This document shows, piece after piece, positions 6,419 to 20,652 of a stretch of 53,787 nt of DNA. Position 1 is the first letter of the stretch. Every line of letters begins with the position of its first letter. The translations under genes and the position numbers were made by a program. Under the pieces are notes generated by a model, which worked only from the letters and a program-made list of their open reading frames with translations, was not told the DNA's origin and did no database searches. Origin of the DNA: Spirogloea muscicola (Eukaryota); assembly GCA_009602725.1 (NCBI GenBank), contig WELB01000013.1, positions 1,279,116 through 1,332,902 on the forward strand. Reading direction: 5' to 3'.

Positions 6419-8838
6419 ATGGCAGCAGCTTCGATGGTGCACGGCTCTAATGCCGCGCCGACTTGCCCACCGAACTCCCGTGTAGCTCGCGAGCGCGGCA
6501 CCCAGGCTGGCCGTGCGCCCAGCTGGCGGCATTGATGGCTTCAGATGCGCCTCTTCTCGCCTCCTGCCTGCTGCAGCTTCGACCAAGAGGTACTGCCAGC
6601 AGTCCTGGGCACGCTGGCCACGCAGCTCCCTCTTGAGCTGCCGAAACCAGGGCTTCCAAGACGTGTGGACTCTCACGTGCCCAGACCATTGTTTGCCACA
6701 TTGCGTGGTGGCAGTTCACGCCATGGCTGCAGAGCCGCCCGGACGGTGTCCGTGAGGGCGATAGCCGACACAGATGAGGTTTGTCGAACGGCGAGGCTTG
6801 AGCTCAGGTAGTTGCGCAGCATGTGGCGCAACTGGATCGAGCTTACTGGGCCGGCCAGGCCGTTCGCCTTCTGCACGAATGTTCTTCTCGTCCGTAGCCG
6901 CCTGGTCTTCCATCCGCTCTCTAGACGACCGACGCCTGTGCTGACAGTACAGTCAGGCTCCTCGCCTGCACAGCAGCGGCAGGTTCGAGGAGTGTCCAGA
7001 ACCGACGAGGGTGGCGCCAAAGGCCTCAACTGGCTGGCGCCACTTTTCGTCCCCCTGGCCCTCTTTGCGACTTACGTCACGCCACTCATGACACCGTACT
7101 TCAAGCAGCTCATTGCCGAGTGAGCACTGTGCCGCCCTTGATCGCACGGTAGTCAGCGAACGAGGGAACGCTGCAGCCCAGCTGTCCTGTCCGAATCTGC
7201 TGCAGACAGTGTGGTCGCAGCCGCCTCTCGTGTCCAGATTCTATCCTCAGTAGCAAGGCCGCAGGCTTGAGAGCCGGCTGCGCTGTGAGGATGTCACAGC
7301 GCTCCCAACCAGCCGGAGTACCTCCACATCCCTGGCGTGGACAAGTTGCTGCAGATCCTGACACCATTCTTTGCGTGCGTCTCTTCCTCCAACTCAAGAC
7401 TTTACACTGTGCGTCGCATGTGCTTCTACTAGAGCTTGTGCTGGTATGTAGGTTTGGACCTACTAAACTTTGGGCACACTTGTTTCAGTGAGCAATTTGG
7501 CTGAGCACACCACCTGAAGAGCCTCCATGTGCCTGAGGCTTGGCAGGAACTTTCGCGTGGAGCAGTGTGGTACCCTCGCCCTTGGCTATTTCCTCTCATA
7601 CCTCTTCGCCTGGTCAATCACAGCTGCCGTCGAGTCGTGCCGCTCGGATAGGTGAGTATCGACTCATGGGGCCCTGCAGTCGACTGCAATTCACAGAAGG
7701 CTTGTGTAGTGGGATGTAGGAGTCAACCGTTATCATTGGCCCTATCAATCACCACAATCTATCATTGTGGGCTGTGGTTGTGTGCAGCAAGGGTCACAAG
7801 ACCCTCCAGTGGGGCCCGACCCTCATCCCACTGTGCATTGTCGTTGGCACTTACCTCATCATCCCCGCACTGTGGCTCACTGCCTACCTTCGCAACGACT
7901 CGGTCTGTCAAGCACGCCCTCGCAGCACTGATAGATGGAGCTGTGGGCAACTATGTTGGGAAGCTAGGCAGGTCAATATGGCCTCTCTGAAGCTGCAGGA
8001 GTTCCTCGCACGAGTTGAGTTGTTCGTGCTGCGCTGCAGGACAATCCCACTGCAGCATGGGTGGAGGAGAAGAAAAAACTGCCCGCCGCAAAAGTTGCAG
8101 CTGCAACTGCTGTGCTCTTTGTGGGCTTCTTGCCACTCCTTGGCACAATGTTCACCAGTGGCCATGACCTAGCCGTCTGCGCAATTGCCATTTTTACGAC
8201 ACCCTTCATCTGGCCTGTGAGCTCCACGAGCACCTCCTTGTCTTTCCCTGCTTGGAATGTCCACCGATGCGGGCATGCCATCGCTGACACTCGCCCTGCC
8301 CTGAGGCTATGCTCACCAGCTCTTCTACTCGCGCCTGACAACGCCTTCGGACCGTGACGGGCCTGCTGGTCATAAAGCTGCTGTGGCAGCTCACCTCCTT
8401 GCAGCAGGGGCATGCTTGGCCTTTCAGGTAACCCGCTCGGCCTGCTCGCATGTTGTGTCGTTCATGTCTTCCCTTCGTTACTTCAGACAACCCTCTGGCG
8501 CGTCCTGATGCCCTTACTGTGTTGGTGTCGGGTGGAAGGCCGTGGCGGCGATCCAGCTGGTACAGCACCCAGATCTGCTGCAGCAGACACTTTCACTATT
8601 CGGTAACCACGAGGGGGCTCTCCATTCGCCGCTCTTCCTCGTCGCCACGCTCCCAGTCCTGGCAGCTAGCTTCCTCTTCGTGCCCTTCTATCAGGAGGGC
8701 TGGTCGACCACCGCGATATACTTTCTCGCGTCTGTGATGCTCGGACCTGGCACGGTGCACTCACTGTACTTTGCTTACCGGGAGAACAAGTACTTGTCCC
8801 TCTCCACCCAGACAAGCAGCCTGACCAAGGCTGAGTAG
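6419..8838 (+). CDS. Multi-exon polytopic membrane protein with a probable plastid transit peptide; resembles the fungal CtvD/AurD/AtmA-like family
   Basis: Phase-consistent GT-AG exons give ...RAARTVSVRAIADTDE|SGSS...GLNWLAPLFVPLALFATYVTPLMTPYFKQLIAE|QCG...RAGCA|ILTPFFA|NFRVEQCGTLALGYFLSYLFAWSITAAVESCRSDS|KGHKTLQWGPTLIPLCIVVGTYLIIPALWLTAYLRNDS|DNPT...FIWP|LFYSR...LAFQ|AVAAIQLV...SVMLGPGTVHSLYFAYRENKY...*. There are several hydrophobic helices. The start exon is uncertain, and the family call rests on remembered motifs. Confidence 0.7.
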
Positions 8839-10087
8839 TCCCTTGATGAGAAACTCATCTGTACATAGAGTTCACATCGTCGAGCTCATCAGAGGACTCA
8901 CGAGAGATTTGGCTCAGTAGTAGACAGGGTCAAGCTGCCATGCACGAAGCTTGACAGCTGCATGGGCAGCAGACACTTTGTGTTGTGCTCTATGTGTAGG
9001 CTGAGCCAGTGCTAGGTCTGAGCGAGAAGTCATGACGACCTGTCAACATGCAGCTTCACATCTTGATTGCTAGATTTCACATTTTTTGCCACAATATATC
9101 TTTTGCCACAGTATAAGATTAAGATGAGGATGTGGGCTGCACATCCACCCTTACCCTGGCATGGGAGTGCAAAGCTGTTGCTATTGCGCAGCTTTTCCAA
9201 ACACTTGTTTTGATTAAATGCGTGAAGTGGATCCTCAGTATCCTTGTTACCTTTTGACGGGGAAATGTCTTTTAACGGAGAATATGTATCGAGCGTGTAT
9301 GATGTGCACAACATATTGAAATCTATATCGAGCCATCAACTTAGAATGTACCACTGGTGCATGCATTTTGTTGCCAACACATTCCTTTGTTATATTCAAC
9401 TCTTCATAAATGGCAGCATTCCTGTGATGAGTATTCCGAATGTAGAGGTCTGCAGCACTCAGAAGTCATTTTGCAGTCATATAACATGAATACTGGCTTG
9501 CTAAATGTCAGCTCTTGGACGATGACCTGCTTGAAAAGTCTCAATACTTTTCCGCTGATGGCTTGTATTATGCTATCAATGAATCTAAATCTGAATTCTC
9601 CTTTCAGCTAGCCATTCGTTTTCTCAAGGTCAGTTTGTCACTGTGTGCCACTTCCAGCTACTGATGATTACCTTACATTCTCTTCCTTCTGACAGAGACA
9701 AAGGGGAGGGGGGCCGCGGAACATGTGGCTGCAACAATGGTGGACAGGTGGACAGCTACCTTGACTTCCATCATTTGCCACTGGTCCTCAAAGCTTGTGA
9801 ATACAGCAGGCACGGATGTTCTATATTTTCGCCTCATTATCGAGTGTGATGTAGATCTTTCACAAGCCAGAAGCTACAATTGCAGGTAACGCATGCTTTT
9901 CAATTTCTATGTTCCCTATAATTGGCGGATCAAATACGCCGTGCTCTTAGTTCTACAAGCATGTATGCTCGAGCATATATGCCTCATAAGCATGGTGACA
10001 CAGGTGTTAATATGCGGCGATATATACAATCGTCTTTGCTACAAAGTTCCCTTGGCAGGAGCCTGGAGCTCCGACTCGGAGGTTAAT

Positions 10088-20600: not shown

Positions 20601-20652
20601 CAACCACAAGGGCGAGGCAATTGAGGGCCTCTGCAACAGTGTCTCTATTTAA
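14671..20652 (+). CDS. LOX: Lipoxygenase (PLAT plus catalytic domain), multi-exon; start probably in the gap
   Basis: Motifs seen: [31 protein letters not shown], Fe-ligand [11 protein letters not shown] (exon about 17849-17923), [44 protein letters not shown], and C-terminal EGLCNSVSI* ending in the Ile ligand (TAA 20650-20652). Confidence 0.95.

Follow-up and report, generated by a model that had tools for sequence, protein, structure and literature searches.

A stretch of 53,787 nucleotides of the Spirogloea muscicola genome (assembly GCA_009602725.1, contig WELB01000013.1, positions 1,279,116 to 1,332,902, forward strand; hereafter the window) holds three adjacent genes that may belong to oxylipin metabolism. 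They encode a plant-type lipoxygenase (LOX), a cytochrome P450 of the CYP74 family that resembles allene oxide synthases (AOS), and a membrane protein whose gene we call gene 3 (Table 1). LOX and CYP74 stand head-to-head, about 0.5 kb apart, and gene 3 converges with the 3' end of CYP74. This layout, gene 3 (+), CYP74 (-), LOX (+), had been put forward in a preliminary description of the locus, and both the gene models and the splice joints confirm it. The exons of LOX and CYP74 match S. muscicola proteins of scaffold s13 at 100% identity, and a single coordinate offset fits both genes onto the s13 annotation. Exons of gene 3, of the CYP74 core and of LOX were joined by coordinate, with GT-AG boundaries and a terminal stop only.

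Evidence from RNA comes from contigs of the run X5 (listed as 'RNA?'), which were compared with DNA runs. Splice joints in X5 cover at least 7 of the 8 modelled introns of gene 3, at least 9 of 11 in CYP74 and at least 15 of 18 in LOX, and none of these joints was seen in the DNA runs compared; loose ends back four further introns, one in CYP74 (the 10th) and the remaining three in LOX. Homologous copies are mixed in this run, where 30 of 73 and 22 of 53 contigs are at least 99% alike to the window, and the window copy of the cluster is therefore probably among the expressed ones. The adjacency of LOX and CYP74 exceeds chance, the probability of a LOX neighbour being ~4e-4 (5 LOX genes among at least 23,555 proteins). 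Plant biosynthetic gene clusters are defined by at least three adjacent non-homologous enzyme genes, which is what lies here when gene 3 is counted as a putative enzyme. Literature searches, whose coverage stops short of subscription papers, found no description of a LOX/CYP74/gene 3 cluster.

Table 1. Features of the window, with positions counted from its first nucleotide
Feature	Position	Strand	Evidence or remark
Relic of a second, diverged CYP74: frameshifted last exon (1467-1620), weak N-terminal trace (2163-2504)	1467..2504	-	blastn 78-81%; tblastn ~70% (last exon), 28%, E 6e-4 (trace)
Relic LOX 5' end, exons 1-2, in-frame stop, head-to-head with relic CYP74	3299..4045	+	blastn, tblastn
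Gene 3, membrane protein of 7-8 helices, likely AscI/PaxA/CtvD-like, 9 exons	6486..8838	+	open reading frame, RNA joints, hydropathy, model
Gene 3 exons	6486-6589, 6715-6778, 6974-7119, 7300-7374, 7547-7651, 7788-7902, 8040-8216, 8320-8427, 8539-8838	+	
Thr codon at family-invariant Asp position (Thr338 in P0001)	8647..8649	+	gapless local alignment
CYP74 (AOS-like), 12-exon core; 5' exons uncertain	10088..14205	-	queried exon 100% identical to P0005; PDB matches; RNA joints
CYP74 heme Cys motif	10475-10458	-	
CYP74 ExxR	11128-11117	-	
CYP74 I-helix FNSRGA	in 11594-11568	-	
CYP74 toggle Phe	12631-12629	-	
Divergent intergenic stretch, candidate shared promoter	14206..14672	.	mostly gap: N 14219-14548, poly-T 14549-14670
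Plant-type iron LOX, 19 exons	14673..20652	+	RNA joints, Pfam, PDB alignment
SNF2/DBINO (INO80-like) helicase	~22500-30500	-	housekeeping neighbour
Class II amidotransferase	39700-41800	+	housekeeping neighbour
eRF1	44400-45200	+	housekeeping neighbour
MFS transporter	48000-50000	+	housekeeping neighbour

The LOX-CYP74 pair

The junction between the two genes contains 330 N and 122 T, a feature that the preliminary description had overlooked. Such a junction raises the question of whether the adjacency is a scaffolding artefact over the gap at 14219-14670. We consider this extremely improbable, because the same junction is kept at two sister loci, on scaffolds s179 and s366, which allows the gapped junction of the window to be counted as real, and because a relic pair upstream stands in sequence interrupted by no more than one N. 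Annotation names and coordinates put 316 bp between the starts of CYP74 and LOX on s179. On s366, the order and orientation of LOX, CYP74, and gene 3 match those of the window, and the convergent ends of CYP74 and gene 3 lie 1086 bp apart (vs 1249 bp in the window). The head-to-head pair is thus present at all three loci with a found CYP74. These three near-identical loci agree with the genome triplication that we take S. muscicola to have undergone.

The relic pair (1467-4045) carries the remains of a CYP74 and of a LOX, the latter nearer to a second LOX type (P0004/P0009) that is ~80% identical to the live LOX. Judging from these sequences, the LOX-CYP74 pair is genuine and existed before the three close copies arose. 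Since the relic resembles the second LOX type, the head-to-head arrangement likely predates the duplication that gave rise to that type. Scans for synteny in other species yielded nothing of use, and among 165 pattern matches in metagenomes a single locus came up, on a contig of 1.5 kb whose match, 30 residues long, we took as chance.

The enzyme identities proposed earlier for these two genes were borne out. First, LOX carries the PF00305 domain (E 4e-118), matches grape LOX (E 2e-76), and keeps the aligned His/His/His/Asn iron ligands; a search of the PDB with a 32-residue LOX exon gave no match. Second, the top three of the 44 PDB matches of CYP74 are CYP74A enzymes (E 4e-61 to 3e-59, the best being CYP74A2 at E 4e-61), and the next one is at 3e-13. 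Third, the motifs FNSRG, EVFR, HPPV, and NKQCPGKD align with CYP74A, which means that the I-helix Asn, ExxR, PPV, and the insertion before the heme Cys, family hallmarks according to PMC8124189, are all kept. Some existing annotations differ from our models: the P0002 annotation of LOX starts ~5.7 kb too far upstream, with an extra exon that is skipped by the RNA joint 19746-20236, and the P0005 and P0006 annotations of CYP74 retain the intron 12650-12787, which is corrected here.

The residues that govern product specificity are less ordinary in LOX. All five Spirogloea LOX proteins end in Ile (NSVSI) and have an 8-residue insertion directly before the specificity site (18348-18443 in the window). 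The S/R switch residue is Ala. Alignment places Ser at the position of soybean F557 and His at that of R707 in each of the five, so the bulky residue expected of a 13S-LOX at the F557 site is replaced by Ser throughout. In another alga, small residues at the F557-type site altered LOX regiospecificity (PMC6587457). A standard 13-LOX is therefore not predicted from Ser and His at these sites, and we regard the chances of oxygenation at a position other than the standard 13 as evenly balanced. The AOS of Klebsormidium prefers 13-hydroperoxides (PMC13364333).

In CYP74, the toggle Phe is in place, KKDIFFG aligning with KKDLFTG in all three Spirogloea copies; this position is Phe in AOSs and in two plant epoxyalcohol synthases and Leu in hydroperoxide lyases and divinyl ether synthases (PMC10813956). 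Judged by its motifs, the protein would rather probably have AOS-type activity, possibly mixed with epoxyalcohol synthase and lyase activities. The existence of an AOS gene in Spirogloea has already been mentioned in print (PMC8578206; bioRxiv 2023.02.03.526968). A scan of prokaryote genomes for CYP74 relatives, of low sensitivity, confirmed 0 of 90 candidates. At the loose ends 11187 and 12505, contigs of DNA runs (both positions) and of X5 (11187) read GKLTME and KLLVT, which all three annotated CYP74s lack; a fourth, more divergent, transcribed CYP74 likely exists.

Gene 3 and its family

Gene 3 is 92.7% identical to the annotated protein P0001. It has seven hydrophobic segments above the hydropathy threshold (six to eight in homologs), and its predicted structure is all-helical and devoid of strands (predicted local distance difference test score, pLDDT, 76.8). 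A full HMMER search returned 17 representatives at E<=0.001. The closest named relative, self aside, comes from Klebsormidium (36%, E 1e-42) and forms a clade with gene 3 and two fragments (support 99/99 in a midpoint-rooted tree of 18 rows, near-duplicates of clusters being left out). The members of the family that carry a source name (within P0011-P0023) come from Spirogloea and Klebsormidium only; one of them, P0015 on scaffold s123, is a second Spirogloea member and keeps the Asp discussed below. A scan of prokaryote genomes, of low sensitivity, confirmed no relative among 93 candidates.

A number of observations connect gene 3 to fungal enzymes that open epoxides. Its nearest clusters in the ESM Atlas are Pfam-less Ascomycota proteins of ~360 residues (0.93), and its homolog P0028 falls with an Ascomycota cluster at 0.96, with a recognition value under the tool's mark. 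The acidic residues are spaced 40/176/45 in the family of gene 3 and 42/193/57 in AscI. The latter has eight helices, no Pfam motif, a resemblance to CtvD and AurD, and a requirement for D61, E103, D296, E353, and D355 (PMC6486709). On the strength of the Atlas clusters and of the matching spacing, gene 3 is probably akin to the membrane enzymes AscI, CtvD, AurD, and PaxA. This would place it in a green-lineage branch, apparently not described before, of the membrane family to which these enzymes of fungal natural-product clusters belong. Its C-terminal GPG..RE motif may resemble that of the fungal enzymes too. Comparison of the model using Foldseek gave no match at E<=0.001, and the best VIA Z was 4.8 among 48,161 chains; these null results neither imply a new fold nor exclude gene 3 from a family. 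Weak Pfam matches to TctB and DUF2834 (4 of 24 members) were dismissed as below the cut-off.

The most unusual trait of gene 3 is a Thr at a position where all 19 homologs covering the column have Asp (23 aligned, 4 gapped); both copies of gene 3 that we saw have the Thr. Mutation D279A abolishes the cyclase activity of PaxA, and AscI likewise needs the equivalent residue (PMC12038925). When our column is equated with AscI D296 and PaxA D279, by spacing and not by alignment, the replaced Asp is the likely catalytic acid of the family, which makes a classical acid-catalysed hydrolase doubtful. The epoxide hydrolase/cyclase assignment of the preliminary description is plausible, if indirectly supported, as a family call. 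One could still imagine an active acid-catalysed hydrolase or cyclase that opens the epoxyalcohol or allene oxide made by CYP74 with its remaining acids, to give triols, ketols, or furan and pyran oxylipins. Gene 3 keeps D122, E162, and E383, positions that are Asp or Glu in 16/21, 20/21, and 17/19 homologs; AscI depends on several acids, D61, E103, and E353 among them (PMC6486709); and the mixed signature of CYP74 permits epoxyalcohol synthase activity. Yet the lost position is invariant in the family and its match in PaxA is essential, and we find such an enzyme unlikely.

The alternative that gene 3 is a decayed enzyme, or no more than a bystander, deserves more weight, although we hold it to be less probable than not. 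The module would then consist of LOX and CYP74 only, and the allene oxide would decay spontaneously to ketols and racemic cyclopentenone. Besides the lost Asp, three arguments favour it: a tblastn search for a remnant of gene 3 at the relic pair gave noise (best E 0.007); 12-oxo-phytodienoic acid (OPDA) can arise without allene oxide cyclase (AOC) (bioRxiv 2023.02.03.526968), in which case ketols and racemic OPDA form (PMC13364333); and the neighbours of any gene are expected to persist after a recent genome multiplication. Against it, the chance of a neighbour from so small a family is ~3e-4 (3 genes; an after-the-fact figure), and gene 3 is intact and spliced, with an N-terminal extension that is absent from 9 of 12 aligned homologs. 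Among the changed codons listed between copies, 11 of 22 are synonymous in gene 3 (22 of 28 in LOX), which, together with splicing, fits purifying selection.

Gene ends and surrounding sequence

The three genes had been described as intact. This holds insofar as they are spliced and lack internal stops, but the 5' ends of all three were not confirmed. No start codon of LOX is visible 3' of the junction gap, in which it is hidden. From PGPRGD on, the three annotations of CYP74 coincide; before it, they differ. Gene 3 has candidate ATGs at 6284, 6318, and 6419. Reading from the last of these runs into a stop at 6533 and could go on only if an intron of 49 nt were spliced out; no intron with RNA support here is shorter than 103 nt. 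The assembly gaps of the window (6048-6189, 14219-14670, 30732-31505, 39726-39761, 44235-44432) fall in very GC-rich stretches, several of them near gene 5' ends, which leaves start codons and targeting peptides ill-defined.

It had also been argued that N-termini rich in Ala, Ser, Arg, and Pro point to plastids. The argument fails: these residues make up 56-71% of the N-termini proposed (38% if CYP74 starts at an alternative site), and the same GC-rich DNA, read in any of its six frames, gives 41-76%, so the richness follows from GC content. Three other traits favour targeting peptides. The proposed N-termini have 0-1 acidic residues in their first 42-55 positions, the N-terminal 75 residues of the gene 3 model are of low confidence, and 9 of 12 aligned homologs have no extension like that of gene 3. 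The low acid content and the extension of gene 3 are at most compatible with plastid targeting.

The genes that flank the cluster are housekeeping ones (Table 1). A dispersed repeat family has copies at 2505-2613, 4616-5189, 32300-34900, 39196-39353, and 51246-53653, some with long open reading frames that match no Pfam family; these are probably transposon remnants.

A possible oxylipin module and its relatives

We propose, tentatively and at slightly under even chances, that LOX and CYP74 form a co-regulated two-step oxylipin module and that gene 3 was recruited to it, where it would bias the fate of the allene oxide without the usual acid of its family. LOX would oxygenate a polyunsaturated fatty acid to an S-hydroperoxide. 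CYP74, likely sharing a short promoter with LOX, would dehydrate this hydroperoxide to an unstable allene oxide. Gene 3, with an epoxide-binding pocket deprived of the hydrolytic acid, might then shelter the allene oxide and bias its ring closure. The parts of this scheme differ in strength. That LOX feeds CYP74 is very probable. That gene 3 takes part in their pathway is a proposition towards which we lean, and if it does, it most likely works without the canonical Asp. A non-canonical oxylipin product is likely, in part because the specificity residues of LOX are unusual.

The absence of a known cyclase gives the third step its appeal. Charophyte AOS is reported only from Klebsormidium and Spirogloea, and AOC only from land plants; Klebsormidium makes OPDA, for which AOC is not strictly required (bioRxiv 2023.02.03.526968). 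Without AOC, allene oxide decays to ketols and racemic cyclopentenone (PMC13364333). A precedent is the tre cluster, in which the AurD-like TreD and a P450 act together, TreD being the proposed cyclase (PMC10682982). A bolder version is that gene 3 is a non-homologous AOC, a fungal-type fold that lost its hydrolytic acid and templates ring closure to chiral OPDA-like cyclopentenones; we judge it improbable.

A number of observations weigh against the recruitment of gene 3 to a co-regulated module. First, the Asp is needed in PaxA and AscI, and gene 3 may thus have no epoxide chemistry left; its Klebsormidium ortholog retains the Asp. Second, gene 3 matches no Pfam family above the cut-off, no PDB sequence, and no fold, its kinship to the fungal enzymes being drawn from Atlas clusters and acid spacing rather than direct alignment. 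Third, it diverges faster than LOX (11/22 vs 6/28 non-synonymous among the codons listed, a biased list). Fourth, the third locus, s179, gave no gene 3 in a search that found one protein among 494 candidates, and every retained copy comes from one genome and thus provides no independent conservation. Fifth, the RNA evidence, contigs of one RNA-type run, cannot show co-expression. Sixth, the I-helix groove of CYP74 is unusual (FNSRGA vs FNTWGG/FNTFGG), and Ala stands at a second site where Arabidopsis AOS has Ser, which we take to be S155 and a site of functional relevance. Finally, we assume that kfl identifiers give the scaffold number in Klebsormidium. Its LOX (kfl00008, kfl00028, kfl00081) and AOS (kfl00195) identifiers then show four different scaffold numbers (supplement rows of PMC4052687). 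The linkage is therefore kept among sister loci of the same genome and not in Klebsormidium, and the LOX-CYP74 pair is a lineage-specific module.

If gene 3 were indeed such a non-homologous AOC, the locus would be an oxylipin-hormone gene cluster, and its host, an alga that lacks the plant AOC, belongs to the sister group of land plants. For the synthesis of OPDA without AOC in streptophyte algae, the locus offers a candidate for the third enzyme along with its matched LOX. The divergent LOX-CYP74 pair, atypical in its specificity residues, has a bearing on ancestral jasmonate-type products and their regulation even if gene 3 is set aside.

To our knowledge, LOX and CYP74 genes are unlinked in land plants. 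The plant route to OPDA, by 13-LOX, AOS, and AOC, and its Klebsormidium counterpart with KfAOS, resemble the Spirogloea locus in having a plant-type LOX and a CYP74 with kept catalytic residues. They differ in arrangement, adjacent and divergent in Spirogloea whereas the Klebsormidium genes are on different scaffolds, and in the specificity sites, T-S and His in Spirogloea LOX instead of the T-F and Arg of soybean LOX-1. Plant AOC is an eight-stranded beta-barrel with a catalytic Glu (PMC13364333), whereas the model of gene 3 lacks strands. Gene 3 is more like the fungal AscI, CtvD, AurD, PaxA/IdtA, and TreD, with which it shares ~330-400 residues, 7-8 helices, the lack of a Pfam family, a similar acid spacing, and a P450 neighbour; it differs from the AscI type in the Thr that replaces the likely catalytic Asp and in its algal host, and from the fungal clusters in that the neighbouring P450 is a hydroperoxide-isomerising CYP74 and not an epoxidase. 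The coral AOS-LOX fusion also couples a LOX physically to a partner that converts hydroperoxides, but that partner is catalase-related, whereas the Spirogloea genes are separate, intron-rich, and nuclear.

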